From assembly GCA_002403855.1 (NCBI GenBank), contig DHIO01000006.1:111356-175355 (forward strand): a stretch of DNA of 64,000 nucleotides. The letters run 5' to 3'. The stretch comes from Acidimicrobiia bacterium UBA4744. Lineage in GTDB: Bacteria; Actinomycetota; Acidimicrobiia; Spongiisociales; UBA4744. A model generated the notes under the pieces. It was not told the DNA's origin. It did not search any database and was given only the letters and a program-made list of their open reading frames with translations. Position numbers and translations under genes: made by a program. Below are positions 6,345 to 40,149 of this stretch, in pieces; position 1 is the first letter of the stretch; every line of letters begins with the position of its first letter.

Positions 6345-6353
6345 GGAGGAAAG

Positions 6354-6599: not shown

Positions 6600-6607
6600 G
6601 GCAACCG

Positions 6608-21499: not shown

Positions 21500-21654
21500 C
21501 TTGGCTGCTCCTTCGCGTGGGGACGAGGTTAGTGGAGTGCCCGATTCATTTGCCCGGGTTGAAGCGGATGGGTCTCCCGTGACGTGGTTCTTCCGTCCTT
21601 CAGATGAATGGCCGGCAGAGGTGGTGGATCCCGTCGGGAGTCGCCGGTGATCTG

Positions 21655-22398: not shown

Positions 22399-22460
22399 GC
22401 GTGCGAAACGATTGCCCGCCGGTTCTCCGGCGTTCTGCTCCGGCCAATCCGATTGCAGGT

Positions 22461-22966: not shown

Positions 22967-23476
22967 TCACCCTTTCGAAGGAGCCGTCCGGGTCCGCTCG
23001 AAACCGAGTTCTGAGCGGGCGATTTCCTCTGCCCAGGATTCCCATGCTTCTGCTACGGGGGGCGTGAAACTCTCTCCGAAGGTGCTGGTCTCATCCACCG
23101 CCAGACCATGGATCACCACCTCCTGCGGCATCGGGATACCCAGCCTCTCACCCATCTCGAGCACTGCGCGGAACGGGAGTGTGTGGAACGACCGGTAGCC
23201 AAATCCGTGGGGTAGGTCCTCCGGCGTAGCCCGCAGGGTGGTGCCCGGCGGGAGATCCGAGGAAACGAAAGCATCGATGATGACCACGCGGTCGTAACCG
23301 CTCATGAGTGAAAGCAGATCAACGGTCGCCACGCAGGCTTCGGCGAACTCGGCCCGATCGCCCGCCAACGCTTCAACACGACGTACCGTTCGCAGGCCCA
23401 CCCCATCGTCGGACAGGATGTCATTGCCGAGCCCAAGCACCAAGGTGCGGGGCAGGGCACCTTGGTGGTCACTCAT
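22967..23476 (-). CDS. [NiFe] hydrogenase maturation endopeptidase
   Basis: LVLGLGNDILSDDGVGLRTV is the HybD/HoxW family motif. 169 aa, immediately downstream of the large subunit. Confidence 0.85.
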   Translation of the reverse strand: MSDHQGALPRTLVLGLGNDILSDDGVGLRTVRRVEALAGDRAEFAEACVATVDLLSLMSGYDRVVIIDAFVSSDLPPGTTLRATPEDLPHGFGYRSFHTLPFRAVLEMGERLGIPMPQEVVIHGLAVDETSTFGESFTPPVAEAWESWAEEIARSELGFERTRTAPSKG

Positions 23477-23484
23477 CCGACGTC

Positions 23485-24948
23485 CTAGTCGCGTACCCGG
23501 TGGGCGATGATCTCACCTCGCGGGTCGCGAACGGTCACCTCCATCGGCATCTGACCGGGCAGGGAATGAGTAGCGCACGCCATGCAGGGGTCGTACGCCC
23601 GGAACGCCATCTCGATCATGTTGAGAACCCCGTCGGAGATCTCTGCCGTCTTCTCGAGAAGACCCTTGGCCGCTTTCTTGATCGAGAGGTTGATGGCAGC
23701 GTTGTTGTTGGTGGTCCCGACGATCAAGTTGACGGCGGTGAGGATCCCATCCTCATCGGTCTTGTAGTGATGGATGAGGGTCCCTCTGGGAGCCTCCACC
23801 ACCCCTACCCCTTCGTCGGGGGTCTCCGTTGGAAGGGTCCGAATGTCGGGGTTGGTGATCTCCGGATCGCGCGCCAGGGCGTAAGCGGTTTCGGCCGCGT
23901 TCACCAGCTCGATGACGCGAGCCCAGTGGTAGGCCAGTGTGAAATGGACGGGCCGTCCACCCAGGGTGTCCATCATCCGCTCGTACTGTTCCTGGGCAAG
24001 CGGCGTCGACATTCCGTCGGCGACGTTCAATCTCGCCAGGGGAGCAGCCCGATAGACCCCGCTATCTTGGCCGTCGGTCATTCCGCTCCAGCCGCGTGCC
24101 TTGAGGTATGGAACCTTGAGGTACGTCCAAGGCTCAACTCGCTCTTCGACGTGATCGAGGTATTCATTGGGTCGAAACCGGGCTATCTCGGCGCCTTCCG
24201 TATCCACGATTCGGATGTGACCGTCGTAGTAGTCGGGCTGGTTGTCCTCATTTACGAGGCCCATGTAGTGGGTTTCGTGCCGGAAGGTGTCGCCGGTGAT
24301 CAAGTCGACATACGCAGGATTCGCCAGGACGACGTCCTCCAGGATCTTCACCGTGAACTTGCCGAATTCCACCAACTCGGCGGTGATTTCCTCAGCCGTC
24401 TGCCGTTCGTCTTCGGATAAGCCGCGGGTGACGCCGCCGGGCAGGGAGGTCACCTGGTGAATGGAACGCCCCCCGAGCAGCTTGATGAGCTCCTGAGCGC
24501 GAGCGCGACTCTTGATAACCGTCTTACCGGTTTCGATGCCAACCTTCTGGATCAACCCGAAGATATTGCGTTCCGCCACTGGTGCGGTGGGACCCACCAC
24601 GAAGTCGGGACCACCGAGGATGTAGAAATGGACCGAGTGGTCGGCGACGAAGAACGTGTTGTAGAGCAGACGGCGGAGTTTCTTGGCGGTCTCCGGCGGA
24701 TCGACGTGGTAGACCGCGTCGGCTGCCTTGGCGCTGGCCATGTGGTGGGCCTCAGGGCATACCCCGCAGATGCGGGTCGTGATGCGCGGCAGCTCCTCCA
24801 CCGGCCGGCCGACGCAGAACTCCTCGAAGCCTCGCAGCTCGGGGATGCGCAGGTAGGCATTGTCCACGTGCCCGTCGTCGTCCATGAAGATATCGATCCG
24901 GCCGTGGCCCTCCAGGCGGGTGATCGGGTCGATGGAGATCGTCTTCAT
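23485..24948 (-). CDS. mvhA: [NiFe] hydrogenase large subunit, group 3 (MvhA-like)
   Basis: Start MKTISIDPITRLEGHG. The N-terminal Ni-binding motif is RICGVCPEAH and the C-terminal motif is DPCMACATH. About 487 aa, preceded by a GGGAGGG RBS. The long ORF extension above 24948 overlaps the small-subunit gene and is not coding. Confidence 0.9.
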   Translation of the reverse strand: MKTISIDPITRLEGHGRIDIFMDDDGHVDNAYLRIPELRGFEEFCVGRPVEELPRITTRICGVCPEAHHMASAKAADAVYHVDPPETAKKLRRLLYNTFFVADHSVHFYILGGPDFVVGPTAPVAERNIFGLIQKVGIETGKTVIKSRARAQELIKLLGGRSIHQVTSLPGGVTRGLSEDERQTAEEITAELVEFGKFTVKILEDVVLANPAYVDLITGDTFRHETHYMGLVNEDNQPDYYDGHIRIVDTEGAEIARFRPNEYLDHVEERVEPWTYLKVPYLKARGWSGMTDGQDSGVYRAAPLARLNVADGMSTPLAQEQYERMMDTLGGRPVHFTLAYHWARVIELVNAAETAYALARDPEITNPDIRTLPTETPDEGVGVVEAPRGTLIHHYKTDEDGILTAVNLIVGTTNNNAAINLSIKKAAKGLLEKTAEISDGVLNMIEMAFRAYDPCMACATHSLPGQMPMEVTVRDPRGEIIAHRVRD

Positions 24949-25934
24949 GGTTGAACCCTCCCGAAGGTGGAGTGCGGCAGGCTGAATCTGTGGAACGTTC
25001 CCACGGGATCGGCGATCTGGTCGAGAATCGCTTGGATTTCGGTCGCTTCGGTGGCGTCGACAACCGAGGCGAGAGCCGACATCATGTTGAGGCCTTGATC
25101 CCGCACGTTGGGAGGCGGGCCGTAGCAACCCCGGCAGGGGCTGCCGGCACCGACACAGAGCCCTCCGCAACCGGACCGGGTGGCGGGGCCCATGCACACG
25201 ATGCCCTGATCGAGCAGGCACAGCTCGGGATCGGCGATGATCTGATGGGGCCGGACGAACTCCTTGATCCGCTTCTCTTCCCGGGTGCGCAAACACTCCT
25301 CGCAGACTGTCTGGTCCCCGGCGCCGATCACGGCTCCCGGTGGCGGCAACGGCCCCCCCGAGACGATCAACTCGATGACCTCCCAAATGCGATGCGCCTC
25401 GGGTGGGCACCCCGGAATGAAGTAATCGACGTCGACCACCTGATCGAGAGTCTTGACCGACTCGAAGAATGTGGGAAGCGACACCTGCCCTTCCGGTAAG
25501 TCCCAAATGGTCTGGGGCTCGACTCGATCTGGATTCACAGTTGAAGGCGACGCGTGATATGCGGCGTTGAAGATCGCCTCCTTGGTAGTGGCGTTGGCCA
25601 GCCCGGGAATGCAGCCTTCCATGGCGCAGGACCCGAAGGCAACCAGAGTCTTGGACTTCTCCCTGAGGACCTGGGCCAGGTGCTCGTTCTCCGAGGTTCT
25701 GATGGCGCCGTTGAACAAGCACAAATCGATGCTGTCCGGTTCCATGCCTTCCACATCGGCGTACTTGACGTCCATGGCCACCGGCCAGAAGACCAGGTCG
25801 AAGTTGGCCGGTACCTCGAGCACCTTCTCATGGAGTTCGAGGATGGCGATCTCGCAGCCGCCACAGCTGGCCGCCCAGTACAGCGCCAGCTTGGGCTTGG
25901 TGGCCGTCTGCCCGGCGACGTCCTGCATGGTCAT
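24945..25934 (-). CDS. mvhG: [NiFe] hydrogenase small subunit, group 3 (MvhG-like)
   Basis: ALYWAASCGGCEIAIL proximal-cluster motif, CMGPATRSGCGGLCVGAGSPCRGCYGP distal-cluster motif, and a ferredoxin-like C-terminus. 329 aa. There is a 4-nt overlap with the large-subunit start. Confidence 0.85.
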   Translation of the reverse strand: MTMQDVAGQTATKPKLALYWAASCGGCEIAILELHEKVLEVPANFDLVFWPVAMDVKYADVEGMEPDSIDLCLFNGAIRTSENEHLAQVLREKSKTLVAFGSCAMEGCIPGLANATTKEAIFNAAYHASPSTVNPDRVEPQTIWDLPEGQVSLPTFFESVKTLDQVVDVDYFIPGCPPEAHRIWEVIELIVSGGPLPPPGAVIGAGDQTVCEECLRTREEKRIKEFVRPHQIIADPELCLLDQGIVCMGPATRSGCGGLCVGAGSPCRGCYGPPPNVRDQGLNMMSALASVVDATEATEIQAILDQIADPVGTFHRFSLPHSTFGRVQP

Positions 25935-25962
25935 GGCTTGCCCTTTCCTCTCGATCCGGGTG

Positions 25963-26379
25963 TCATTGCTTCAGCTCCAACGGTCCTAGCTCGCGGATCC
26001 TGTTCTCCATCTCCCAGCTCACCTTGCTGTACTTGTCGCCTTCAGATGCCGAGATCCATTCCAGCCGGAGACGTTCTTCGTCGATACCGAACCCACCGAG
26101 CAGCTTCTTCATCATCAGCGTTCGGCGCAGGCATAGGTAGTTGCCCTCTGAGTAGTGGCAATCGCCGGGGTGGCAGCCGGCCAGCAAGACACCGTCGGCG
26201 CCGGATTTGAGCGCGGTGAAGACGAAACCGGGGTCGATCCTCCCCGAGCACATAACCCGGATCGGGCGGAGGGTGGGCGACGACTGTATGCGCGATACAC
26301 CGGCCAGATCGGCACCCGAGTAGGCGCACCAATTGCACAAGAATCCAACGATCTTGGGATTGAATCCGTTCTCCGGCAT
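25963..26379 (-). CDS. mvhD: MvhD-like hydrogenase iron-sulfur subunit (Hdr/Mvh electron-transfer adaptor)
   Basis: The internal start MPENGFNPKIVGFLCNWCAYSGADLAG...RVMCSGRIDPGFV is the MvhD signature. A GGAGGA RBS lies upstream, and the gene begins 11 nt after the hdrA stop. Confidence 0.8.
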   Translation of the reverse strand: MPENGFNPKIVGFLCNWCAYSGADLAGVSRIQSSPTLRPIRVMCSGRIDPGFVFTALKSGADGVLLAGCHPGDCHYSEGNYLCLRRTLMMKKLLGGFGIDEERLRLEWISASEGDKYSKVSWEMENRIRELGPLELKQ

Positions 26380-26389
26380 AGGTTTCCTC

Positions 26390-29300
26390 CTAGACGGCCA
26401 GCAGGCCGCCGATCTCCGCGTAGATCTGTTGGTCGGTGAATCCTGCACCGACGATGGCCGAGGCCGGGCAAGCGGCCACACAGATGCCGCAGCCCTTGCA
26501 CAAGGCCTCTTCGACCCGAGCCACCTTCTTGTCCTCGACCCAGGAGATGGCGTTGTACGGGCAGAGGGCGTTGCACACCCGGCATCCGCCACACAACTCC
26601 TCCTGCACTTCGGCTTTGATCGGATCGATCGTCATCTCGCCCCGGGCCATCCATCCCAGCATCTTCGACGCCGCCGCCGAAGCTTGGGCGACGGTGTCGG
26701 GGATGTCCTTCGGTCCCTGGGCGCAGCCGGCTATGTAGATCCCGTCGCTGGCCGTGCCGATGGGGTCTAGTTTCGGGTGTCGCTCCAGGAGGAACCCGTC
26801 GGCGCTCTGGCTGAGGTGCAGCAGCTGGCGAAGCTCTTCGGAACCGTCGCTCGGCACCATGGCCGGGCAAAGGATCACCAGGTCGACCGGGACCTCGCGC
26901 CGTACTCCCAGCAGGGTGTCTTCGGCTTTCACCAGCAGTTTCCCCGGACTTCCCTCGGGAGCTTCGATCACCTCGGCCACCTTGCCGCGCACCATCGTGG
27001 TGCCCTCGTCCATGATGCGGGTGTAGAACTCTTCATAGCCTTTCCCGAAGGCCCGCATGTCGATGTAGAACTGGTAGACCTCGGCCTCGGTCCTCTCCCG
27101 CACGAGATGGGCGAATTTGAGTGCATACATGCAGCACACCCGGGAGCAGTAGCGGTTGTAGTTCTCGTCCCGGGAACCGACGCAGTGGAGGATCGCCACC
27201 GAGCGGGGTGCCTCCCCGTCGATCAAGACCTTGCCGTCCGTCGGTCCGGTAGAGGAGAGCATCCGTTCGAACTCGAGACCGGTTATCACGTTCTCCAAAC
27301 GCCCGTAGCCGTACTGAGGAATGACGCTCGGGTCGAACTGCTTGTAGCCGGTGGAGACCATGATCTGACCCACGTCGAGATGGTCCACCTCGTCCTTCAT
27401 GGAGTGATCAACGGCACCGGGCTTGCAGGCATCGACACACTGGTAGCAGTCGACGCATACTCCACAGTGCAGACAGCGCTGTGCCTCGGCCACGGCCTGC
27501 TCTTCGGTGAAACCGAGTTCGACCTCGTCCCAACCGCCGATTCTTGTTTCAGCCTCCAGCTTGGGCATCTGAGTGCGGGGCACTCTCTCGATCTCTTCAT
27601 ATGGTTTTGAGTACCGGTGCGGTCGGCCCTCGACCCGGGGAATCTCGGCCGGCACCTGATGCGTTTCGAAGCCCTCGAGAGGTTGTCCGCGTAGGTACTT
27701 GTCGATTGCCTCAGCGGCTCGTTTTCCGGCTCCCATAGCGGCGACGACAGTCGCCGGTCCCGATACGGCATCGCCGCCGGCGAAAACACCGGGGAGGTTG
27801 GTGGCAAAGGTCTCCGCGTCGACGTCCAACGTTCCCCACGGGGAAAGCTGCATCTCTCCGGCGCCGGGGTCGTCTTCGAGGTAGTCGAGATCGGCGCGCT
27901 GCCCAATGGAGGCAACCACCATGTCGAAGCCCAGGTCGTGCTCCGACCCCTCGATGGGGATCGGTCGGCGCCTGCCCGTATCGTCTGGTTCCCCGAGCTC
28001 CATCTCGATGACCCGGAGGCCGGTGACTTTGCCGTCCTTGCCGAGCACTTCGACCGGTGCCCGGAGGAACAGGAAGCGAATGCCCTCGGTCTCGGCATCG
28101 ATGGCTTCGTGCTCCTCGCAAGGCATTTCCACCCGGGTACGCCGGTAGACCACCGTGACCTCTTCGGCGCCTTCCCGCAAGATCGTGCGGGCCACGTCGA
28201 TTCCGCAGTTGCCGCCCCCGATCACCGCCACCTTCCGGCCCACAGGCTGCGATTCTCCTAGTGCTTTGTTGTGGAGGAACTGCACGGCGTCCACCACTCC
28301 GTCGAGGTCCTCGCCCGGCACGTGCATGGCGATACCGCGATGCGCCCCGGTAGCGACGAAGATCGCTCCGTACCCGGTTTCCCGGAGTTGCTCGAGCGTG
28401 ACGTCACGTCCGAAGGCGACGCCGGTTTGAAACTCGACACCCATGCGACGGATGAAGTCGATGTCCTGTTGCAGCTGCTCGCGAGGCAGGCGGTAGGCCG
28501 GGATGCCGAGGGCGAGCATACCTCCCAAGACTTCTTCCCGTTCGTAGACGGTGGACTGGTAGCCGCGTTGCGCCAGATTGTGGGCACAGGCCAGACCGGC
28601 CGGGCCACTTCCCACGATCGCGACTTTCTCGCTGTGGCGGACCGGCGGTTCGGGGACCTTGACCTCGCCGTTGTGCTGAGCCTCCCAGTCCAGGGCGAAC
28701 CGTTTGAGGTGCTGGATGGCGATCGGCTCTTCCACGAAGCCGCGGTTGCACTGTTCTTCGCACGGGTGGTAGCAGACCCGCCCGCATACCACGGGCAGCG
28801 GGTTGGATTTGCGGATCAGTTGGGCCGCCTCGGCGAATCGCCCGTCACCGATGAGAGCCACATATCCGGCTGCCTCTTGGCCGATCGGGCAGGCCGACCA
28901 ACAAGGTGGGCGTTCGTCCTTTTCGATGAGATAGCTGTTGGGGATCGCTTGTGGGAAGGTCTTGTGGATAGCTGTGCGCGACGCCATGCCCATGTCGAAG
29001 ATGCTGGGCACTGTGACCGGACACACTGCGATGCAGTCCTGGCACGAGGTGCACGCGTCGGTGACGTAACGGGCCCGCTTGCGTACTCGAACTCGGAAGT
29101 TGCCGGCATAGCCGGAGACCTCCTCGATGTCGGACATGGAGAGGATCTGAACATTCTCAGTTTGGGCAACCGAGACCATCTTGGGGGTCAGGATGCAGGA
29201 CGAGCAGTCCAGGGTTGGGAAGGTCTTGTCGAAACGAGCCATGTTGCCGCCGATGGTCGAGTCCCGCTCCACGAGGTAGACCTGGTTGCCCCCCTGGGCC

Positions 29301-29794
29301 AGGTCGAGAGCGGCCTGGATGCCGGCGATCCCGGCCCCGATGACCATCGTGTCCGGGTAGATGGGAGCCTCGGAGGCGAACAGAGGCTCCTGGTGAACGA
29401 CCCGCTCGATGGCGGCATTGCAGAGGGCTATCGCCTTGCCGGTTGCCGCCGCCGGATCGGAGTGGATCCACGCGCAGTGCTCCCGCACGTTGACCATCTG
29501 GAAGAGGTACGGGTTGAGTCCGGTGCGACCTACCGCCCCGCGGAAGGTGAGCTCATGCATCATGGGTGAGCAGGCGGCCACCACCACCCGATCGAGCCCC
29601 TGCTCACGAATGTCCTGCTCGATGAGATCTTGTCCGGGTTCCGAACACATGAACTGGTAGTTGCGGGACACAGACACGCCCGGCAGGCCGGATACGTAGT
29701 CGGAGACCTCGTCCACGTTCACCGTGCCGGCGATGTTCGTACCGCAGTGGCACACGTAGAAGCCGACCTTTGGTTTTCCTTCGTCACTCATCAC
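26390..29794 (-). CDS. hdrA: HdrA-like flavoprotein (CoB-CoM heterodisulfide reductase subunit A family) carrying an inserted GltD/NfnB/SudA-like NAD(P)H-binding module
   Basis: 1134 aa. N-terminus KVGFYVCHCGTNIAG and the FAD site MVIGAGIAGIQAALDLAQ match HdrA. Residues about 330-700 carry a GltD-like Fe-S region (VCGRVCYHPCEEQCNRG) plus two Rossmann folds (KVAIVGSGPAGLACAH, KVAVIGGGNCGIDVA). The C-terminal half contains several CxxCxxCxxxCP ferredoxin motifs, as in HdrA. Confidence 0.8.
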   Translation of the reverse strand: MMSDEGKPKVGFYVCHCGTNIAGTVNVDEVSDYVSGLPGVSVSRNYQFMCSEPGQDLIEQDIREQGLDRVVVAACSPMMHELTFRGAVGRTGLNPYLFQMVNVREHCAWIHSDPAAATGKAIALCNAAIERVVHQEPLFASEAPIYPDTMVIGAGIAGIQAALDLAQGGNQVYLVERDSTIGGNMARFDKTFPTLDCSSCILTPKMVSVAQTENVQILSMSDIEEVSGYAGNFRVRVRKRARYVTDACTSCQDCIAVCPVTVPSIFDMGMASRTAIHKTFPQAIPNSYLIEKDERPPCWSACPIGQEAAGYVALIGDGRFAEAAQLIRKSNPLPVVCGRVCYHPCEEQCNRGFVEEPIAIQHLKRFALDWEAQHNGEVKVPEPPVRHSEKVAIVGSGPAGLACAHNLAQRGYQSTVYEREEVLGGMLALGIPAYRLPREQLQQDIDFIRRMGVEFQTGVAFGRDVTLEQLRETGYGAIFVATGAHRGIAMHVPGEDLDGVVDAVQFLHNKALGESQPVGRKVAVIGGGNCGIDVARTILREGAEEVTVVYRRTRVEMPCEEHEAIDAETEGIRFLFLRAPVEVLGKDGKVTGLRVIEMELGEPDDTGRRRPIPIEGSEHDLGFDMVVASIGQRADLDYLEDDPGAGEMQLSPWGTLDVDAETFATNLPGVFAGGDAVSGPATVVAAMGAGKRAAEAIDKYLRGQPLEGFETHQVPAEIPRVEGRPHRYSKPYEEIERVPRTQMPKLEAETRIGGWDEVELGFTEEQAVAEAQRCLHCGVCVDCYQCVDACKPGAVDHSMKDEVDHLDVGQIMVSTGYKQFDPSVIPQYGYGRLENVITGLEFERMLSSTGPTDGKVLIDGEAPRSVAILHCVGSRDENYNRYCSRVCCMYALKFAHLVRERTEAEVYQFYIDMRAFGKGYEEFYTRIMDEGTTMVRGKVAEVIEAPEGSPGKLLVKAEDTLLGVRREVPVDLVILCPAMVPSDGSEELRQLLHLSQSADGFLLERHPKLDPIGTASDGIYIAGCAQGPKDIPDTVAQASAAASKMLGWMARGEMTIDPIKAEVQEELCGGCRVCNALCPYNAISWVEDKKVARVEEALCKGCGICVAACPASAIVGAGFTDQQIYAEIGGLLAV

Positions 29795-29955
29795 AGGCTC
29801 CAGTCAGTGTGTCGCTCGTTGTCGAAGGGGTCGATCATTGCGGGGAAGGGCGGGGGAGTGCCGATAGGGGAAGACAGCCGCTTCCGGCTGGTTGATGACG
29901 CTCCGGCGTGGTGCCGGCGCCGCGAAGATCCAAGCATCTCGCGTAGTGACTCCCT

Positions 29956-29971
29956 TGTGAATCCATTCACA
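29956..29971. promoter_or_regulatory. perfect CRP-type palindrome TGTGAatccatTCACA upstream of hdrA
   Basis: Exact match to the TGTGA-N6-TCACA consensus. It sits in the 242-bp intergenic gap between the etfD-like gene and hdrA, about 165 bp upstream of the hdrA start. Confidence 0.45.
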
Positions 29972-30036
29972 ATGATGGTGGTCGTCTCCCCGGCTTGCCA
30001 GGGCCAAAAGGCTCTCCCTGGGGACTTCAAGACCCA

Positions 30037-32031: not shown

Positions 32032-32047
32032 CTCGGCTGCCTGTTCC

Positions 32048-33022: not shown

Positions 33023-33031
33023 CGTTCCCCC

Positions 33032-33799
33032 TCACGCCTTCCCCAGCTCTCGGAGGAGATCGACGATCCTCCCCGCGACCTCATCCTCATCGCCGGTGAT
33101 CATGGTCGCCCGTTCGGCGGTCTCCGGCTTGAACATCGAATCGACCATCGGTCCTCCGGTGGTATCAAGATCCGGTGCCGCCTGCTCGTCGACGGCGGCC
33201 GTCTTCATCGCCTGACGGATTCGGCTGATGGCGACGTAGCGGGGTGGCGATTCCGCTGCTTGAACCCCGAGCACTGCCGGCATCTCGACGTCCATCTCGG
33301 CGATCAGACCGCCCGGGTATTCCTTGCGGACCCGGCATCGACCGTTGATAGGAGCGATCCCCGACACGTAACCCACGTAGGGCATACCGACGTATTCGGC
33401 GAGCAGCGGACCCAGTGACCCATCCAGATCGTTGTGGGCCTGTACACCTACCAGCACCAGATCTGGCTCGAGGATTCGAACGGTGGTGGCGTAGAACCGC
33501 GCCATGGCATGATTGTTGACATTGACCCCGTAGTCGACTCCGGTCAGCTTGATGAGCCGGTCGACCCCTTTGGCCGATGAGGCAAACAGGACATCATCGA
33601 CTCCCTCGCCGTCCAGGCTGATAACCGATACCGTCCCGGAGAGGCTCTCCTTGAGTAGGAGAGCCTGTTCGAGGGCGTGCTCATCGACCTCGTTGAGAAT
33701 GAATCGGAGCCAGGTCGTGTCGAGGGCCGTCCCGCCGTCATCGATCTCCAGTTCTTCAACCAGGTCGGGAACGAGCTTGACCGGTACCACGATGTTCAT
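33032..33799 (-). CDS. etfB: electron transfer flavoprotein beta subunit
   Basis: MNIVVPVKLVPD N-terminus typical of EtfB/FixA, in a 255-aa protein. Confidence 0.85.
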   Translation of the reverse strand: MNIVVPVKLVPDLVEELEIDDGGTALDTTWLRFILNEVDEHALEQALLLKESLSGTVSVISLDGEGVDDVLFASSAKGVDRLIKLTGVDYGVNVNNHAMARFYATTVRILEPDLVLVGVQAHNDLDGSLGPLLAEYVGMPYVGYVSGIAPINGRCRVRKEYPGGLIAEMDVEMPAVLGVQAAESPPRYVAISRIRQAMKTAAVDEQAAPDLDTTGGPMVDSMFKPETAERATMITGDEDEVAGRIVDLLRELGKA

Positions 33800-33803
33800 G
33801 ACT

Positions 33804-35024
33804 TCACCCCTGCTCGATCAATGAATCCACCAACAACTCGGCAATGTCCTTGACCACGAGGTGCTTGGCCCCTGTCACCGTCTTGGTGGCATCCTCGAAA
33901 CGAGGCATCTCGTAAGGACAGGTCACGGCCAGGATGTCGGCCCGGACGTCGATGGCTTCCTGCACTCGAATCTCGGACAACCGGAAGTGAGCCTTCTCCC
34001 ACCGGAAACCGTCGAGCCACATCCCACCCCCCCCTCCACCGCAGCAGATGCTGGTTTCCCGGGTGTGCAACATTTCTACCAATTCGACTCCGGGAACAGC
34101 GGTCAGCAACCGCCGGGGATCCTCGTAGATGCCGTTGGCCCGTCCCAGATAGCAGGGATCGTGGAAAGCCACCCGGGCCGGGATCTCTCGAGTGAGCAAG
34201 GGTTGGAGCCGATCGAGCCGCCCTGCCAGGAATTGGCTGTAGTGGGCCACCGGGTAGGAGATACCCAACGCCGGGTACTCGTTCTTGAGAGCGTTGAACG
34301 CGTGAGGATCGGTGGTCAGGATTTCTTCGAATTCGTACTTGCCGAATGCCCTGGCGTTCTTCTCGGCCAGCATCTCGAACAGCCCCGTCTCACCCGCCAG
34401 GCGTTGAGAATCCCCGTCGCTGTTCTCTTCAGGGCCGAGTATGCCGTAGTCGACGTCGAGGCGGTTGAGAACCCTGGCCAGCGCTTGTGAAGCTTGGCGG
34501 CCGCGCGGATGGTACGAGGCGTAGTCGCCCACGAACCAAAGGACTTCCACCGGGCGCTTGATCTTGCTGAGGATGGGGACCGCGGGTTCGATGTCCATCG
34601 CCCAATCGGCGCGCCGCCGCGGTGGCTCACCGAGGGCGTTTCCATAGCGCTGCGAGTTCTCGAGGGCTTCCTGGAGTTCGGCGGGGATGCTGCCGGTCAA
34701 CAGCATTTCCTCCTTGGCCCGGGTCATCAGGCCGTTGGTGAGGGGGATCTGCGCCGGACAAATCTGTGCACAGGCGTAGCAGGAAACACAGAGCCAGAGC
34801 GAGTCGACTCCCATCACCTTTTCGAACATCCCCGCTCGCATGGCGGAGATCATCTTGTGGGGAGGGAAATCCATCAAGTAGCCAAACGGACAGATGCCGC
34901 TACACGCGGCACACTGCAGGCAAGCGCGAATTCGCCGGCCCTCTTCCACTTCTTCCAGGCTGAGACTGAATGAATCCGTGAAGCCGGCCGCGTCGGCGGC
35001 CTCCATCGCCGGTGCTGCCATCAT
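33804..35024 (-). CDS. soluble HdrD/GlcF-like Fe-S oxidoreductase (two 4Fe-4S motifs plus two CCG domains)
   Basis: CLQCAACSGICP, CVSCYACAQICP, PCYLGR and ICCGGGGGG motifs. The start is taken at the ATGATG at 35024, 5 nt after GAAAGGTG. The ORF extends to 35048 with a TTG. Confidence 0.75.
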   Translation of the reverse strand: MMAAPAMEAADAAGFTDSFSLSLEEVEEGRRIRACLQCAACSGICPFGYLMDFPPHKMISAMRAGMFEKVMGVDSLWLCVSCYACAQICPAQIPLTNGLMTRAKEEMLLTGSIPAELQEALENSQRYGNALGEPPRRRADWAMDIEPAVPILSKIKRPVEVLWFVGDYASYHPRGRQASQALARVLNRLDVDYGILGPEENSDGDSQRLAGETGLFEMLAEKNARAFGKYEFEEILTTDPHAFNALKNEYPALGISYPVAHYSQFLAGRLDRLQPLLTREIPARVAFHDPCYLGRANGIYEDPRRLLTAVPGVELVEMLHTRETSICCGGGGGGMWLDGFRWEKAHFRLSEIRVQEAIDVRADILAVTCPYEMPRFEDATKTVTGAKHLVVKDIAELLVDSLIEQG

Positions 35025-35192
35025 TCGCACCTTTCTGTCGATAGTCAATCCGTCCTATGTCGCGCCTCGCCACCCTCGAGTTCTGTGACGGTCAGGGATG
35101 GCCTCATGGACGTAAGTGTCTTGCGTGACGGGGCGGTATCCAACCTCTCCACAACGACTCCAGGACCTTCCTTCGGAGTATGCGGTCGTTCT

Positions 35193-35216
35193 TGTGAATT
35201 CTTTCACTAGAGTGAA
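35193..35216. promoter_or_regulatory. CRP/FNR-type operator candidate in the divergent promoter region: TGTGAattcttTCAC overlapping the perfect palindrome TTCACtagaGTGAA
   Basis: Read directly from the sequence. 14 of 16 positions match TGTGA-N6-TCACA. Centred about 160 bp from both divergent start codons (35024 and 35358). Confidence 0.4.
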
Positions 35217-35357
35217 CGGGGTGGCTAGGGTCAAAAGACTCAACCTGCCGGAGGTCGAGGCCGGCAGCTACGCAAGACCTCACCACGGTGACGGCCCTGT
35301 GGGGCGCGCAGCACGGGCGTTGCGACCGGCCCACGCCGGCCTGAGGTCGGGATCGGT

Positions 35358-37082
35358 GTGAACCACGAGCCCCTCACCATCATGTGTGCTGCCGCAGTTT
35401 GTGCCGACCTGCTCCGGTTGCGCGACACCCTCGAGAAGCTCTACGGAGAGTCGGCTCGCGTGGAGGCTCACCACAGTGGGGAAGGCTTGTGCCACGCGTT
35501 AGAGGCCCATCTCGCCTGTGGAGATCTCGTTCCCGTGGTGGTCGTCGACTGCCGGCTGGCCGACGGTACGGGAGCCGACGCCCTCGTTGATCTCGCCGAT
35601 CGCGATGCCAGCGGTGCCACCCGCAAGGTCCTCATTCTCGCTGATGATGAGACCGCCGAGACGGATCGAATCCTGGCGAAAGTGGCGCTCGATGGTGTCC
35701 TCACCCGGCCATGGACCATCCACGAGTTGCGGACTACCGTCGAGCGACTCGTCGATGAATACCTCAGAGAGGTAGACCCCGAGGCGGATAGAAGATTCGC
35801 TGCGTTCACTATGGGTCCCACCGGTTCCACCGAGCGTGACGCGCAACGCACTGGGGGAGACCTCCTGCAACGTTTCGATGAGCAGGTTCGGCGCGACCGA
35901 GCCAAACAACGAAGCTTCCTCGAGGATCGCGATCTCAGAGACAACGAAGTCGAACAGGCAATGATCGATGAGATGGAGCGGGTCCTCGGGTATCCCCCGC
36001 GGAAACGACTGCCGGCCGGAAGCCTGATCCTGACTGAAGGCGAATCGATCGATGGAATCACTGTGGTTTTGGACGGCGAGGTTCGCTTGTTCCGGGAGGT
36101 GGACGGCCGGGAGATCGTGTTTCACCATCTCACCGCCGGGCGAATTATCGGGTTGATGTCGCTAGCTCAATCACGCCCGGCAGTTTTCAATGTCGAGGCC
36201 GAAACAGAAGTCACCGTGATGCCGGTCACGCTGGAGCAACTCGATTCGGCGTTGCGAGCCAGTCCCAGCCTGTCCGCACACTTCGTGTCTGTCTTGGTGA
36301 GATCATTGGCGCGACGCAATCTGCGCAGCATCGAACAACAGCTGCAAATCCGAGAGTTCGCCACGAGCCGGATCAAGGAATCGGAGCGGCTGGCGGTGGT
36401 GGGTCAACTAGCTGCCGGAGTGGCTCACGAGTTGAACAACCCTTTGCAGGGAATCGTCGCCTATTCCCACTTGCTGTTGGAGAAGCACGCCGAAGACGGA
36501 CGCCACCGATCATCTCTGGAGAAGATCGTCGCCCAGGCCGATCGATGTATCGCCATCGTGAGGGCTCTGCTCGATTTCTCGCGTCCGACCGCGCCGAAGA
36601 AGCAATCCTCTGACGTGAACTCGCTGCTGACCGACTGCATAGAGCTGGTCGAGGAACAAGCTCTCTTTCTCAACATCGCGATCGACCGGGACTTGGAACC
36701 GACCTTGCCGCTGGTCATGGTCGATCCATCGCAGATACAGCAGGTGTTCGTCAACTTGATCATCAATGCGGCCGAAGCGATGGACGGCGACGGACGCCTG
36801 GAGATAACCACTCGCCATATGGATAGCGAGGTCGAGATCGAGTTCACGGACAGTGGACCGGGGATCAACCCCGAAGACTTGGACCGGGTGTTCGACCCAT
36901 TCTTCTCGACCAAGGAGGCAGGCCATGGGACGGGTTTGGGCCTGGCGATCAGTTACGGGATAGTCCGCGAGCACGGAGGTCGCATCACTGCGGCGAGCGA
37001 GGAAGTAGCGGGAGCAACATTTGTCGTTCGGCTCCCGATTACGGTCGATCGGCCCTGGAGCAACAACATGGAGCAGGAGTAG
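35358..37082 (+). CDS. cytoplasmic sensor histidine kinase with N-terminal receiver-like domain and a cyclic-nucleotide-binding (CAP-effector) domain
   Basis: 574 aa with no TM segments. Contains a cNMP-binding-like region (LILTEGESIDGITVVLDGEVRLFREVDGREIVFHHLTAGRIIGLMSL), a HisKA H-box (AAGVAHELNNPLQGIV), and HATPase N/G boxes (NLIINAAEA, DSGPGI, GTGLGLAIS). Confidence 0.8.
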   Translation: MNHEPLTIMCAAAVCADLLRLRDTLEKLYGESARVEAHHSGEGLCHALEAHLACGDLVPVVVVDCRLADGTGADALVDLADRDASGATRKVLILADDETAETDRILAKVALDGVLTRPWTIHELRTTVERLVDEYLREVDPEADRRFAAFTMGPTGSTERDAQRTGGDLLQRFDEQVRRDRAKQRSFLEDRDLRDNEVEQAMIDEMERVLGYPPRKRLPAGSLILTEGESIDGITVVLDGEVRLFREVDGREIVFHHLTAGRIIGLMSLAQSRPAVFNVEAETEVTVMPVTLEQLDSALRASPSLSAHFVSVLVRSLARRNLRSIEQQLQIREFATSRIKESERLAVVGQLAAGVAHELNNPLQGIVAYSHLLLEKHAEDGRHRSSLEKIVAQADRCIAIVRALLDFSRPTAPKKQSSDVNSLLTDCIELVEEQALFLNIAIDRDLEPTLPLVMVDPSQIQQVFVNLIINAAEAMDGDGRLEITTRHMDSEVEIEFTDSGPGINPEDLDRVFDPFFSTKEAGHGTGLGLAISYGIVREHGGRITAASEEVAGATFVVRLPITVDRPWSNNMEQE

Positions 37083-37086
37083 CTTG

Positions 37087-38232
37087 ATGGCTATGGCACT
37101 CGAGGATGGTCGCTCGAGGATCCTCATCATCGACGATGAGCAGGTGGTGCTCGAATCCTGCATAGAGATCTTGCTCGACCAGCCCTACGACGTCGCCACC
37201 GCGTCCAGCGGCGCTCGCGGTCTGGAATTCATGGAGGAATTCCGGCCCGATCTGGTGTTCGTGGACTTGAAGATGCCCGGCCTCTCCGGCCTGGAAGTCC
37301 TCGAAGCTATCAACCGGGATGACCCGACAGTCGTGACGGTGGTCATCACCGGGTACGCCACCGTGGACTCGGCGATCGAGGCCATGAAGCTAGGAGCGTA
37401 CGATTTCATCCCCAAGCCGTTTACGCCCGACCAGTTCCGGGTGATCACCGCACGCAGTCTGGAAAAGCGCAAGCTCGTTCTCGAGACGATCGCGCTACGC
37501 CGTGAAAAGGAGATGCTTCGGGAGAACTTCGCCGCGATCGTTAGCCATGAGCTGAAATCACCGCTGAGTGCCGTTCAGCAGAATCTCTTCGTCTTGGCAC
37601 ATCAACTCTCTCCCGTCACTACCGAGGACCAGCGAGTGCAACTCGAGCGCATGAAGTCACGGATCGGTGATCTTCTGGACCTAGTGGATCGATGGTTGCG
37701 CAGCGTCTCGGTCGACCTGGACGGCATCCGAGAACGATTCGAGACCCTGCCTCTCTCTGTTCCGATCACCAAGGCAGTCGAGTCCGTGCAACCCCAAGCC
37801 GTTCGCAAAGACGTCGAGATCGTCGTACAAGAACGCGCCGGGAGTGTCTACGGCCACGAAGGGGTTCTTACCGAAGCCCTGACCAACATCATCGGCAATG
37901 CGGTGAAGTACTCGTATGAGGGCGGCACCGTCACCATCACGACGAAGCAACTCGACGACCGAGTCAGGGTCGATGTGACGGATACCGGAGTGGGTATTTC
38001 GGAAGACGACCGAGTTCACATCTTCGATGACTTCTACCGAGGGGACGTCGGCATGAGCCGCCAGAGCGGCGCCGGACTCGGGCTGGCCATCAGTCGGAGG
38101 ATCATTGAGGCCCACAACGGATCCGTGTCGGTCGAGAGCGAGTTGGGGAGAGGCACCACCTTCACCATCCTCCTTCCCACCGAGGCCCCTGAGCCTCCCG
38201 TTTCACGTTTACCTGAGAGGAGCGAGATCTAA
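37087..38232 (+). CDS. hybrid response regulator-histidine kinase (N-terminal receiver, then HisKA and HATPase)
   Basis: Receiver domain (RILIIDDEQ...LVFVDLKMPGLSG...AYDFIPKPF), H-box IVSHELKSPL, and HATPase (NIIGNAVKYS, DTGVGI, GAGLGLAISRRI). The start is 5 nt after the upstream kinase stop. Confidence 0.8.
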   Translation: MAMALEDGRSRILIIDDEQVVLESCIEILLDQPYDVATASSGARGLEFMEEFRPDLVFVDLKMPGLSGLEVLEAINRDDPTVVTVVITGYATVDSAIEAMKLGAYDFIPKPFTPDQFRVITARSLEKRKLVLETIALRREKEMLRENFAAIVSHELKSPLSAVQQNLFVLAHQLSPVTTEDQRVQLERMKSRIGDLLDLVDRWLRSVSVDLDGIRERFETLPLSVPITKAVESVQPQAVRKDVEIVVQERAGSVYGHEGVLTEALTNIIGNAVKYSYEGGTVTITTKQLDDRVRVDVTDTGVGISEDDRVHIFDDFYRGDVGMSRQSGAGLGLAISRRIIEAHNGSVSVESELGRGTTFTILLPTEAPEPPVSRLPERSEI

Positions 38233-38248
38233 TGCAGGGAGGAATCCC

Positions 38249-38674
38249 ATGAACCCGACGAAACGGCTACTCATCGTCGACGACGATCCAGACTTCGCCG
38301 GTGCGATCAGCGAGATCCTCGAATCGGCCGGCTACGAGACGGACATAACGCACAACCCCAAGGAGGGATGGGCGGCGCTCAAGACGAACAAGTACGACCT
38401 TCTCCTGCTGGACATCATGATGGGTCGGGGCGCCGAGGGTGTGATGATGGCCCGTAAGATCCGCAAGGATGAATCGTTGCGCGAGATGCCGGTGCTCATC
38501 ATCACCGGTTTGCGCGAGCAGATTGCTTTTCTCTTCCCGGGCCAAGCCATCCATCCGGGATTCGTGCCGGTCGACGAATTGGTCGAGAAGCCGGTGGAGC
38601 CTGAACTTCTTCTCGACCGGGTTGGTGCGCTGATCGAAGCCTCCGAGGCGCGATCGCCGGGGGGTGATGAGTAA
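38249..38674 (+). CDS. single-domain response regulator (CheY-like receiver)
   Basis: MNPTKRLLIVDDDPDF...YDLLLLDIMMGRG...KIRK, 141 aa, with a GCAGGGAGG RBS upstream. Confidence 0.8.
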   Translation: MNPTKRLLIVDDDPDFAGAISEILESAGYETDITHNPKEGWAALKTNKYDLLLLDIMMGRGAEGVMMARKIRKDESLREMPVLIITGLREQIAFLFPGQAIHPGFVPVDELVEKPVEPELLLDRVGALIEASEARSPGGDE

Positions 38675-39247
38675 GTGTTTCCTGCCACGACTTCACCCCA
38701 ATTCAGCATGGAAGTCATGAACCTTCTCTACGCAGGCGACGGGAAACCGCCGAACCTCTGCGTGCATTGTTCGGTCTGCTCGGCTACCTGCCCGGCTGTG
38801 GAGTTCATGGACCACTCCCCGCGCATGCTCTTGGCCATGATCAACGCCGGGATGAAGGACGAGGTGCTTGCCAGCAACACGTTCTGGACTTGTGCCTCGT
38901 GCTTTGCCTGCTCGGAGCGGTGTCCCCAAGGGATACACGTAGCCCAGATCATGTATGCACTGAAGCGTTACTCGCTGTGGCACAACCGGTACCCGGAAGG
39001 GTTGGTTGGGCCCGATTTCTCACGGCGTTTCGTGAAGACCATCCTTGCCAACGGAAAGTCGTACGAGCCCGGCTACGCCCCTGCCTTTATCTGGGAGGGG
39101 GGGCTTCCGGGGCTTCTGTACGAGATGCTGGGAGCCGTCAAGCTATTGCGGCGCGGGCGACTCCAGTTGATTCCCAAGAAGATCAAACGCGTGGACAACT
39201 TCCGCCAGATGATCGGGCGGATCATACCCCTGGAGGGTATCTCGTGA
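38675..39247 (+). CDS. hdrC: heterodisulfide reductase subunit C-like (two 4Fe-4S motifs)
   Basis: CVHCSVCSATCP and CASCFACSERCP motifs in a protein of about 190 aa. The GTG start lies directly after the response-regulator stop, preceded by GGGGTGATGAG. Confidence 0.75.
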   Translation: MFPATTSPQFSMEVMNLLYAGDGKPPNLCVHCSVCSATCPAVEFMDHSPRMLLAMINAGMKDEVLASNTFWTCASCFACSERCPQGIHVAQIMYALKRYSLWHNRYPEGLVGPDFSRRFVKTILANGKSYEPGYAPAFIWEGGLPGLLYEMLGAVKLLRRGRLQLIPKKIKRVDNFRQMIGRIIPLEGIS

Positions 39248-40149
39248 AGACGTACGCCTACTACCCCGGTTGTTCCCTCGAGTCGATGGCGGTCAGCTAC
39301 CACGTGTCCGCCGTGGAGGTTGCTCATCTTCTCGGCGTGACGCTGGTGGAGATCGAGGATTGGAACTGTTGTGGTGCCACCGCATATTCCCACGTGGACG
39401 AGCTGCTGGCACAGGTCTTGAGTGCCCGCAACCTCGCCCTGGCCGAGAAAGAGCAACGGCCGGATCTGGTCGCTCCGTGCAGCGGTTGTTTCAAGAACCT
39501 CTATTTCGCCAATGAGCACATGCTCGAAGACGCCGATCTGATGGACCACATGAACTTCGCCCTGGAGGCTGATGATCTCAGTTATTCCGGCGGTGTCACC
39601 GTCCATCACCTGATGGATTTGTTCGTGAGGGAGGTCGGCCTCGATGCGATCCGCGAAAAGGTGGAAGATCCGCTCGAAGGCCTGCGCGTTGCCCCGTACT
39701 ACGGGTGTCAGATGACCCGCCCGAGGAAGCCGGGGGAGGGTCTGGAGGATGTGGAAGGGCCGCGGTTCTTCGAGGAGTTGGTCGGGGCGCTCGGGGCGAT
39801 ACCGGTCGACTATCCCTATCGGATGCGCTGCTGTGGGGCCTCGTTGATAGCGACCAGCCGGCAGGCGGCCCTCTCCATGCTGCGGGACTTGCTGCAGAGT
39901 GCCATGGACGCCGGCGCGGACGTGATTGCCACGTCATGCCCGCTGTGCCAGATCAACCTGGAGGTCTACCAGTCCGAGGTCAACCGGGAACTCGGCACGG
40001 AGTTCTCCATGCCGATCATGTACTTCACCCAGTTGATGGGCCTCGCACTGGGGATCAAGCCGAAGCAGTTGGGGATCGGTAGCGAGGTCGTCCCGGTCGC
40101 TCCGGTCTTGGCCTGTCGCCAGAGCCAGCGGACTGCAGTGGCCGGCTGA
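39244..40149 (+). CDS. hdrB: heterodisulfide reductase subunit B-like (two CCG domains)
   Basis: VKTYAYYPGCSLE N-terminus with the CCG motifs NCCGATAY and RCCGASL. 301 aa. The GTG start overlaps the hdrC stop (GTGA). Confidence 0.8.
   Translation: MKTYAYYPGCSLESMAVSYHVSAVEVAHLLGVTLVEIEDWNCCGATAYSHVDELLAQVLSARNLALAEKEQRPDLVAPCSGCFKNLYFANEHMLEDADLMDHMNFALEADDLSYSGGVTVHHLMDLFVREVGLDAIREKVEDPLEGLRVAPYYGCQMTRPRKPGEGLEDVEGPRFFEELVGALGAIPVDYPYRMRCCGASLIATSRQAALSMLRDLLQSAMDAGADVIATSCPLCQINLEVYQSEVNRELGTEFSMPIMYFTQLMGLALGIKPKQLGIGSEVVPVAPVLACRQSQRTAVAG

Follow-up and report, generated by a model that had tools for sequence, protein, structure and literature searches.

Gene sets that combine a group 3c [NiFe] hydrogenase with heterodisulfide reductase (Hdr) proteins are common in nonmethanogenic bacteria, where the physiological electron acceptor is still to be shown. 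Here, we describe such a set from Acidimicrobiia bacterium UBA4744, located in 64,000 nucleotides of contig DHIO01000006.1 (assembly GCA_002403855.1, positions 111,356 to 175,355), a stretch referred to as the window. Within 17.2 kb, it carries genes for an Mvh-type hydrogenase, for HdrA, HdrB, and HdrC, for an electron transfer flavoprotein (ETF, EtfAB), and for two further iron-sulfur proteins, one of which resembles a membrane ETF:menaquinone oxidoreductase (EMO). We propose, with moderate confidence, that this island is one functionally linked and coregulated redox system assembled from three known modules, a judgment that refers mainly to its H2-oxidizing version. That the Mvh-Hdr and ETF-EMO parts are coupled, in either direction, appears somewhat more probable.

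Every one of these modules is already known, and each has been described separately in the literature. Clusters homologous to the hydrogenase genes were assigned to group 3c (PMC5317091; bioRxiv 10.1101/2021.08.23.457424), and the latter study reported Anaerolineae group 3c hydrogenases that are preceded by HdrABC, and sometimes by ETF, as having a potential for bifurcation. An HdrA form known as HdrL has been described (PMC2702500, PMC5947623), also as HdrA9 to HdrA11 of ANME-1 (PMC9012536). It was termed type III HdrA in PMC12054007, where its GltD/NfnB-like insert is read as an NAD(P)H site with NAD(H) as the proposed partner, where NADH-driven H2 production is proposed for type III HdrA with mvhADG, and where a Bathyarchaeota cluster carrying mvhADG is noted. 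The third module is known from the type II sHdr systems of sulfur oxidation, which are defined by the gene arrangement described below and in which sHdrB3 is an HdrC2/HdrB2 fusion binding one noncubane cluster. There, sHdrB3 is proposed to replace HdrC2B2 in the Hdr complex, with EtfAB and EMO routing electrons to menaquinone (PMC11094781). EMO, or EtfD, also forms with EtfAB an established stand-alone route of beta-oxidation (PMC13083937).

Organization of the island

As judged from open reading frames (ORFs) and family-level matches, the island consists of 14 intact genes arranged in three tight blocks on an Acidimicrobiia chromosome; all the genes described by the initial annotation proved to be intact and correctly placed. 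Block C (minus strand, intergenic gaps of at most 28 bp) contains hdrA, mvhD, mvhG, mvhA, and a HycI-type protease gene. Block A (minus strand, gaps of at most 16 bp) contains a soluble protein with Fer4 and CCG domains, etfB, etfA, and a membrane protein with Fer4 and CCG domains. A divergent region of 309 bp lies between block A and block B (plus strand, gaps of at most 16 bp), which carries two histidine kinases, a regulator consisting of a receiver (REC) domain only, hdrC, and hdrB. The features are, in order:

22967-23476, minus strand: HycI-type hydrogenase maturation endopeptidase (Pfam HycI, 8e-12), last gene of the hdrA-mvhDGA block
23485-24948, minus strand: [NiFe]-hydrogenase large subunit, MvhA type, predicted group 3c (VhuA and MvhA matches)
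24945-25934, minus strand: [NiFe]-hydrogenase small subunit, MvhG type, three-cluster form (full-length MvhG alignment)
25963-26379, minus strand: MvhD/FlpD, [2Fe-2S] adaptor from hydrogenase to HdrA (Pfam FlpD over the full length, 1e-49)
26390-29791, minus strand: HdrA of the predicted HdrL or type III kind, 1133 aa (NfnB/GltD-like insertion at about 27461-28915)
29956-29971, no strand: predicted CRP/FNR-type palindrome TGTGAATCCATTCACA, perfect, 162 bp upstream of hdrA
30037-32031, minus strand: EMO/EtfD-like membrane ETF:menaquinone oxidoreductase (EtfD 9ojn_A match)
32048-33022, minus strand: EtfA, large ETF subunit (Pfam ETF and ETF_alpha)
33032-33799, minus strand: EtfB, small ETF subunit (Pfam ETF)
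33804-35048, minus strand, likely start at 35021-35024: HdrB3-like soluble protein (Pfam Fer4_8 and one CCG domain)
35193-35208, no strand: predicted CRP/FNR-type site TGTGAATTCTTTCACT, in the divergent promoter region between hdrB3 and the first kinase gene
35358-37082, plus strand: histidine kinase with an N-terminal receiver-like region and a cNMP-binding domain (Pfam cNMP_binding, HisKA, HATPase_c)
37087-38232, plus strand: hybrid REC-histidine kinase (Pfam Response_reg, HisKA, HATPase_c)
38249-38674, plus strand: REC-only response regulator, directly upstream of hdrC (Pfam Response_reg only)
38675-39247, plus strand: HdrC, 2x[4Fe-4S] (TIGR03290/HdrC as best family match)
39244-40149, plus strand: HdrB with both CCG motifs intact (TIGR03288, 217 bits)

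Hydrogenase and Hdr subunits

The large hydrogenase subunit has the nickel ligands of motifs L1 (RxCGxC; Cys61 and Cys64) and L2 (DPCxxCxxH; Cys455 and Cys458), followed by a C-terminal extension for cleavage. Its best NCBIfam model was VhuA (384 bits) and its best PDB match MvhA (5odc_F, 3.4e-120, 405 bits). Since the bifurcating HydL of A. mobile (393 bits) and HoxH of group 3d (351 bits) were close seconds, the large subunit alone cannot settle the group. The small subunit (329 aa, 14 cysteines) settles it as 3c by its full-length match to MvhG, residues 15 to 322 aligning to residues 3 to 292 of 5odc_E with 217 bits; the short HoxY of group 3d (57 bits) and A. mobile HydS (89 bits) matched its N-terminal half only. 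In addition, MvhD matched the NCBIfam model VhuD and the C-terminal region of HdrA2. The genes hdrA-mvhD-mvhG-mvhA-hycI are contiguous, an arrangement kept in more than 15 loci of several phyla, and the HycI-type protease gene has the same position in relatives. Taking together the MvhA-like large subunit, the MvhG-type small subunit, and the adjacent mvhD and hdrA, the enzyme is predicted to be a group 3c hydrogenase.

HdrA residues 7 to 293 and 779 to 1130 are collinear with residues 11 to 299 and 300 to 651 of methanogen HdrA (8rvu_a, 698 bits). Residues 294 to 778 form a clean insertion of 485 aa between methanogen positions 299 and 300, exactly in the inserted-ferredoxin domain. This insertion matches NfnB (4ylf_B, 333 bits) and NfnA of NfnABC (9n5u, 409 bits), likewise resembles modules of formate dehydrogenase complexes, contains the Pfam domains Fer4_20 and Pyr_redox_2, and has two GxGxxG motifs with YRR after the second. 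The HdrA domain set itself is complete, comprising the N-terminal domain, the thioredoxin-reductase-like FAD domain, and the inserted and C-terminal ferredoxin domains, with cluster cysteines invariant in the alignment. The gene had been correctly named hdrA, but the insertion had been missed. The protein is, by its predicted architecture, the HdrL or type III form with an NfnB/GltD-like FAD/NAD(P)H and 2x[4Fe-4S] module, so that the set of HdrA partners likely now includes NAD(P)H. Members of this family of about 1130 aa are 57 to 70% identical across Acidobacteriota, Ignavibacteriota, Bacteroidota, Calditrichota, Aminicenantes, Zixibacteria, and others.

HdrB has all 10 CCG ligand cysteines in both motifs, corresponding to two noncubane clusters, and its best PDB match was methanogen HdrB (7bkb_B, 7.8e-54). 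HdrC contains eight cysteines in two CxxCxxCxxxC motifs, i.e., two [4Fe-4S] sites. The MvhA and MvhG scores and the two CCG motifs of HdrB bear out the earlier claim of a complete Mvh-type hydrogenase with HdrA, HdrB, and HdrC.

The HdrB3-EtfAB-EMO module

Two genes of block A had been annotated as extra HdrD-type modules, a designation that their ligands contradict. The membrane protein matched EtfD of M. smegmatis (9ojn_A, 2.7e-101), has about five transmembrane helices, and was aligned residue by residue to the ligands listed in PMC13083937. It keeps the heme b ligands His73 and His232, Phe85 and Phe230 of the quinone pocket, Arg306, and the eight cubane cysteines of two clusters. The ligands of its first CCG motif (CCG1), which are equivalent to Cys503, Cys538, Cys581, and Cys584 of the linear [3Fe-4S] cluster D1 in M. 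smegmatis EtfD, are all replaced (D, N, D, T); in CCG2, four cysteines and the histidine are kept and the fifth cysteine is replaced by aspartate. In the soluble protein, an HdrC-like 2x[4Fe-4S] domain is joined to an HdrB-like one that has a site for a single CCG cluster. Its ligand pattern is D, S, D, D, H, A in CCG1 and C, C, C, C, E in CCG2, the CCG1 cysteines being gone and the last CCG2 cysteine being glutamate. The respective ligand patterns recur in 29 orthologs of the soluble protein and in about 60 of the membrane protein. Because all the CCG1 cysteines are replaced, both proteins lack the paired noncubane clusters that define HdrB and HdrD. They are instead predicted to be of the sHdrB3 and EMO/EtfD types, which together with EtfAB would form an HdrB3-EtfAB-EMO exit module.

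Desulfobacterota, Dehalococcoidia, and Acetothermia have an HdrD-like gene immediately before hdrAL. Orthology of the soluble protein with this gene was also considered and rejected, since its products have lost few or none of the CCG1 cysteines (CCCSHC, in one case CCSSHS) and the window protein has lost them all. A bifurcating (group 2) ETF was ruled out as well: the motifs RxGV and GxxSPTxV are absent from EtfB and RPxFGG is absent from EtfA, so that all three motifs of the bifurcating FAD (Bf-FAD) site of group 2 (PMC10734219) are missing. The best PDB match of EtfB was the non-bifurcating ETF beta subunit of M. methylotrophus.

For comparison, metagenome contigs were scanned with the EMO protein, which gave 80 loci, and tblastn was then run with all the window proteins; individual loci are cited below by their L numbers. 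Distant four-gene blocks (36 to 50% identity; L140, L141, L145, L146, L150, and L153) sit in canonical type II sHdr clusters with the order dsrE-shdrC1-shdrB1-shdrA-shdrH-B3-etfB-etfA-emo and with lplA nearby, and the window HdrB3 is about 50% identical to sHdrB3 of such clusters, e.g., L141. Elsewhere, the HdrB3-EtfAB-EMO module has been described as part of type II sHdr clusters, and these occur commonly in Actinobacteriota and Chloroflexota. The island might accordingly be a sulfur-oxidizing system of the sHdr type, with an accessory hydrogenase and with protein-bound sulfane sulfur or lipoamide as the substrate of HdrB and HdrB3. We regard this as very improbable. With the L141 core proteins as queries, tblastn gave no matches to sHdrH, sHdrB1, or DsrE in the window, and Pfam scans that included the flanks detected no sHdr core genes, tusA, lbpA, or lipoate ligase in the 64 kb. 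Moreover, HdrA is of the full-length methanogen type with MvhD and not an sHdrA of 340 to 360 aa, and HdrB scores best against methanogen HdrB. Given the absence of sHdr core and sulfur-transferase genes from the window, membership in the sHdr system was rejected, and only the exit module is common to both.

In a subgroup of related loci (L118 to L121, L127, and L133; e.g., L119, positions 2966-5317), the frame of a helix-turn-helix WYL-WCX regulator runs into the hdrB3 ORF, the two being fused or abutting.

Linkage of the Hdr/Mvh and ETF arms in relatives

In 10 complete and 6 contig-truncated loci, the genes form a single-strand array with the order hdrB3-etfB-etfA-emo-HK-HK-RR-hdrC-hdrB-hdrA-mvhD-mvhG-mvhA (HK, histidine kinase; RR, response regulator). 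All gaps of the 13-gene array of L128 measure at most 62 bp, and the two-component system (TCS) genes and hdrCB lie between emo and hdrA; HdrA of these Anaerolineae arrays has the short canonical form. Nine further loci have hdrB3-etfBA-emo followed directly by hdrA-mvhDGA(-hycI), without hdrCB. Where EMO homologs are at least 60% identical and at least 6 kb of downstream flank is available, hdrA and mvhD are found downstream in 14 of 15 cases, versus none of 11 for homologs below 55% identity, which are found either in type II sHdr clusters or in simple emo-etfBA loci. The named EMO homologs at 66 to 68% identity are from Anaerolineales/Anaerolineae. Among Acidimicrobiia relatives, the arrangement is variable; L087, L088, and L089 retain the ETF block beside hdrAL. 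The relatives by HdrA identity to the window protein are as follows:

L087: HdrA 94% identical; arrangement of the window, including the flanks
L089: HdrA 80% identical; emo upstream of hdrAL
L088: HdrA 78% identical; B3-etfBA-emo-hdrAL-mvhDGA in a different chromosomal flank
L083: HdrA 77% identical; hdrAL-mvhDGA alone
L085: HdrA 73% identical; rubrerythrin-hdrC-hdrB-hdrAL-mvhDGA, left flank as in the window
L086: HdrA 70% identical; rubrerythrin-hdrC-hdrB-hdrAL-mvhDGA

A possible, though less favored, explanation is that two independent systems adjoin. EtfAB-EMO, with HdrB3, would then drain acyl-CoA or other flavin dehydrogenases into menaquinone, and Mvh-Hdr would couple H2 to NAD(P)/ferredoxin and a disulfide; their proximity and common operator would reflect use under the same condition, e.g., low oxygen or carbon limitation. 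This would agree with the stand-alone beta-oxidation route of EMO/EtfD with EtfAB (PMC13083937), the distant emo-etfBA loci without any Hdr, the widespread hdrAL-mvhDGA operons without ETF, the gap between the blocks, and the lack of bifurcating motifs in the ETF.

Several findings weigh against a single linked system. The gap between emo (block A) and hdrA (block C) measures 242 bp, and the hdrCB pair, encoded on the plus strand, is 8.9 kb away from the start codon of hdrA and 5.6 kb away from that of hdrB3. The adjacency of hdrA, hdrB, and hdrC expected of an HdrABC is thus not found in the window; the three genes are adjacent in L085, L086, and the Anaerolineae arrays. The window HdrCB are orthologous to the partner of the short HdrA and not to HdrCB of hdrAL operons. 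Furthermore, hdrAL-mvhDGA occurs alone in L083, hdrCB-hdrAL-mvhDGA occurs without ETF in L085, L086, and about 80 genomes of other phyla, and the ETF block of L120, which belongs to the WYL-regulator subgroup, has no Hdr or Mvh genes within 8.4 kb. The related loci are not phylogenetically independent either, so that the enrichment statistics are inflated.

What argues against independent systems is the linkage of hdrA and mvhD to emo in 14 of 15 loci of the EMO clade with at least 60% identity, as well as the single-strand arrays: their gaps do not exceed 62 bp, and emo and hdrA are separated there by the TCS and hdrCB genes. In addition, the adjacency survives at least three different rearrangements, and an HdrB3-type protein adjoins an HdrA-type flavoprotein in every sufficiently flanked locus except L119 to L121.

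A candidate operator common to both arms

The palindrome TGTGA-N6-TCACA is the consensus of CRP-type and some FNR-type regulators. With up to one mismatch, it has only two matches in the window, TGTGAATCCATTCACA and TGTGAATTCTTTCACT. Their number is ordinary (two versus 1.36 expected); their placement is unusual, as both fall within the 551 bp of intergenic DNA of the island. Perfect sites were found at the same positions in L087, L088, L089, and L083, with a further one upstream of the L085 operon; for the site upstream of hdrB3, L087 and L088 have perfect equivalents at the same position. At least 15 Anaerolineae loci also have a candidate operator 140 to 330 bp before hdrB3. The related loci, 628 kb in total, contain 36 matches, of which 22 lie at most 400 bp upstream of hdrB3 or hdrA, a portion equal to 3.75% of the sequence (binomial P of about 1e-22, a value inflated by the relatedness of the loci). 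Overall, these matches suggest that both arms of the island are probably under a CRP/FNR-family regulator acting at the predicted sites, and they serve as the nearest stand-in for the coexpression check that the initial annotation had called for. No CRP-family regulator and no hyp genes were detected among the window ORFs scanned. A scan for consensus promoters and terminators was uninformative (6 sites versus 3.8 expected; 13 versus 10.5 expected).

The two-component module noted earlier before hdrC is present, but it consists of three genes. At the position of the cNMP-binding kinase, the Anaerolineae arrays have an sCache_3-HAMP kinase. Orthologs of the REC-histidine kinase are 54 to 60% identical in those arrays and 39 to 45% identical beside hdrAL in L005 to L011, and the RR-hdrC-hdrB adjacency is conserved across three phyla. 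None of the kinase-kinase-REC genes encodes a DNA-binding output domain, which hints at control of the Hdr complex at the protein level.

The REC-only regulator is found directly upstream of hdrC in Acidimicrobiia, in Anaerolineae, and in metagenome-assembled genomes (MAGs) of Aminicenantes and "Eubacteriales" (window, 38249-38674; L128, 15196-15609; L005, 8022-8426, and also L006 to L011), usually with a REC-histidine kinase nearby. In L005 (2799-7246 and 8022-14631) and in L006 to L011, the hydrogenase that accompanies the HdrL-type HdrA is a four-subunit enzyme of group 3b (sulfhydrogenase-like) and not Mvh; these loci have RR-hdrC-hdrB upstream, a kinase downstream, and no mvhD.

Proposed electron path

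In the system that we propose, the first module would be the group 3c Mvh-type hydrogenase (MvhA, MvhG, and MvhD, with its protease), and the second a flavin-based bifurcating HdrA with HdrC and HdrB, to which the insert would add an NfnB-like NAD(P)H/FAD part. The third would be HdrB3-EtfAB-EMO, the presumed electron route from the Hdr-like core to menaquinone in type II sHdr systems. As in the solved methanogen complex, H2 would be oxidized at MvhA, and MvhG and MvhD would relay the electrons to the flavin of HdrA. The high-potential electron would then travel from HdrB3 through ETF and EMO to menaquinone, and/or through HdrC-HdrB to some thiol or disulfide. The low-potential electron would pass through the clusters of the HdrA ferredoxin domain into the inserted NfnB-like module; since these clusters feed that module, its acceptor would be NAD(P)+, possibly also ferredoxin. 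A CRP/FNR-family regulator would set the expression of both arms, and a kinase-kinase-REC phosphorelay is encoded in the same cluster. The initial annotation had suggested that the ETF/quinone and Hdr/Mvh proteins form a supercomplex; the Anaerolineae arrays, the linkage within the EMO clade, and the common operator support the functional part of that idea, and its physical part did not find such support.

CoM-S-S-CoB is not a compound that this host would be expected to make, and no methanogenesis genes were found in the 64-kb window. One tentative version of the proposed path is that the high-potential acceptor of Mvh-Hdr is not a heterodisulfide: HdrB3 would dock on HdrA instead of, or beside, HdrBC and feed ETF, EMO, and menaquinone, so that H2 oxidation would reduce quinone and NAD(P)+/ferredoxin simultaneously. 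If true, this would be a heterodisulfide-free, respiration-linked Hdr and would answer what HdrABC-MvhADG does outside methanogens.

The same parts could also run in reverse, as a confurcating, H2-evolving machine in which electrons from reduced ETF or menaquinol, supplied by substrate dehydrogenases, and from NAD(P)H or reduced ferredoxin merge at HdrA and leave as H2, giving fermentative or syntrophic cells a soluble disposal of high-potential electrons. Most Anaerolineae, the group with the largest share of the arrays, live by fermentation (PMC3971608), bidirectionality is ascribed to group 3 hydrogenases (PMC5037454), H2 production from NADH is the direction proposed for type III HdrA with mvhADG (PMC12054007), and an ADP-forming acetyl-CoA synthetase is encoded near the L128 array. 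Yet MvhADG-HdrABC, the only characterized homolog, is established to run in the H2-oxidizing direction (PMC5861303), neither an acyl-CoA dehydrogenase nor another ETF donor is encoded in the island (no acyl-CoA dehydrogenase was found among the window ORFs scanned), and H2 formation from electrons at the ETF level would be feasible only at very low H2 pressure. We consider the reverse direction unlikely. It assumes coupling too, and the weights that we give to the H2-oxidizing system, to independent neighbors, and to the reverse machine are separate judgments and not shares of one total.

Mosaic origin, flanks, and host

The window HdrC and HdrB are 50 to 63% identical to those of the Anaerolineae arrays (HdrC alone, 48 to 54%), compared with 36 to 42% for L085 and L086. 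Because a core of the widespread bacterial hdrAL-mvhDGA type is joined to an ETF block and a TCS-hdrCB segment of the Anaerolineae-type cluster, the window is a rearranged mosaic, in which the TCS-hdrCB segment lies upstream and in inverted orientation relative to that cluster. The GC content is 0.603 in TCS-hdrCB, 0.628 in the other blocks, and 0.64 in the flanks, with similar values at third codon positions (GC3); as a sign of recent transfer, this signal was discarded as weak, and it gives a weak hint of a mosaic history.

In L085 (487-1005) and L086 (7890-8423), a rubrerythrin gene that is absent from the window precedes hdrC, its position before hdrC-hdrB-hdrAL-mvhDGA suggesting oxidative-stress protection of the system. 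When recurrent flanking genes were sought that might name the substrate, only a UbiA-family prenyltransferase recurred, in six loci: it lies divergently upstream of the 13-gene array in L095 (5156-6184) and in five other Anaerolineae loci and may be related to menaquinone or another prenylquinone.

The island is flanked by ordinary chromosome. The left flank contains fab genes, DinB, a MerR regulator, TgpA-DUF58-MoxR, a resolvase fragment, HNH, Usp, and TatD, and the right flank contains the dcw cluster from mraZ to ftsZ, sepF, and divIVA, followed by ileS. At the left border of the island (19669-22763) are a short resolvase-domain ORF, an HNH endonuclease, Usp, TatD, and a 100-aa ORF (22461-22763, minus strand) without a family match; this gene set is kept in L085 and L087, indicating a stable flank and not a recent insertion scar. 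The cluster fabD-fabH-fabG-fabF at 3581-7864 is ordinary housekeeping fatty-acid synthesis. Within dcw (43915-46661), murE and mraY overlap (murE stop at 45600, mraY start at 45597) with no murF between them, the usual order being murE-murF-mraY. Rfam and tRNA scans of the 64-kb window gave no matches.

The host is actinobacterial, as the initial annotation had held, because proteins in the same 90% cluster carry the name "Acidimicrobiia bacterium"; relatives at 76 to 94% are likewise Acidimicrobiia. An Acidobacteriota host, considered since the closest HdrA match in the genome collection was a Vicinamibacteria MAG (70%), was ruled out by these relatives and by the actinobacterial-style dcw/SepF/DivIVA flank.

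Novelty and implications

A literature search for a characterized Mvh-Hdr-ETF-EMO complex returned only the genomic remark of the 2021 preprint. The assembly is thus uncharacterized, as had been supposed, although the combination of group 3c hydrogenase, HdrABC, and ETF is on record there. As far as we can tell, what is new is the actinobacterial, HdrL-type variant with its mosaic origin, the recognition that the "HdrD" genes encode HdrB3 and EMO, from the exit module that type II sHdr systems use, the near-obligate Hdr/Mvh linkage within one EMO clade, and the operator common to both arms.

This locus and its Anaerolineae relatives tie Mvh-Hdr to HdrB3-EtfAB-EMO by conserved gene order and a common operator, and they offer a specific and testable candidate path from H2 through HdrA to ETF/quinone and to NAD(P)/ferredoxin. 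If the coupling is true, the inference of H2 metabolism changes for many sediment and groundwater MAGs with these genes; if it is false, the locus represents two known systems that happen to adjoin. The comparison also suggests that Hdr cores and exit modules may have been exchanged as cassettes between Chloroflexota and Actinomycetota.

Comparison with known systems

The island shares with MvhADG-HdrABC of hydrogenotrophic methanogens (5ODC, 8RVU) all six subunit families with their cofactor ligands, the MvhD adaptor, and a dedicated protease, with scores against the solved subunits of 698 (HdrA), 405 (MvhA), 217 (MvhG), and 167 to 186 bits (HdrB). It differs by the 485-aa insert of HdrA, by hdrCB on the opposite strand behind three signaling genes, and by the attached HdrB3-ETF-EMO. 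With HdrL of Desulfobacterium autotrophicum and Syntrophobacter and type III HdrA of ANME-1 and Bathyarchaeota (PMC2702500, PMC9012536, PMC12054007), it has in common the GltD/NfnB-like insert in the ferredoxin domain followed by mvhD and, with Bathyarchaeota, the presence of mvhADG. Unlike these, the window HdrA belongs to the bacterial family of about 1130 aa and is combined with ETF-EMO.

Mycobacterial EtfD and Syntrophus EMO (9OJN) resemble the window EMO in the five transmembrane helices, the heme b histidines, the menaquinone-pocket phenylalanines, the two cubanes, CCG2, and the location beside etfBA. In the window protein, however, the CCG1 ligands are all replaced, Cys712 is replaced by aspartate, and the disordered tail of about 260 residues is absent; mycobacterial EtfD is also a stand-alone protein, whereas the window EMO is linked to Hdr/Mvh. 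EtfABCX/FixABCX, which transfers electrons from NADH to ferredoxin and menaquinone, offers a functional analogy only, with menaquinone as the high-potential acceptor reached through an ETF-linked membrane protein (PMC10734219); bifurcation would take place on unrelated proteins (at the Bf-FAD of ETF in one case, at the FAD of HdrA in the other), and the window ETF is devoid of the Bf-FAD motifs.

Type II sHdr systems (shdrC1B1AHB3-etfAB-emo, PMC11094781) have the same order of the exit module, B3, etfB, etfA, and emo, and the same single-CCG B3, the modules of such clusters as L141 being about 40 to 50% identical to that of the window. The core of the window is nevertheless full-length HdrA with Mvh, in place of sHdrA, sHdrH, and sHdrC1B1, and sulfur transferases, LbpA, and lipoate ligases are not found nearby. 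Finally, the Anaerolineae group 3c-HdrABC-ETF clusters (West-Roberts et al., bioRxiv 10.1101/2021.08.23.457424) have the same families and order as the 13-gene arrays, with which the window proteins are 50 to 70% identical. In contrast to them, the island of the window is actinobacterial and combines an HdrL-type HdrA with an inverted TCS-hdrCB segment located upstream and a kinase of the cNMP-binding and not the sCache kind.

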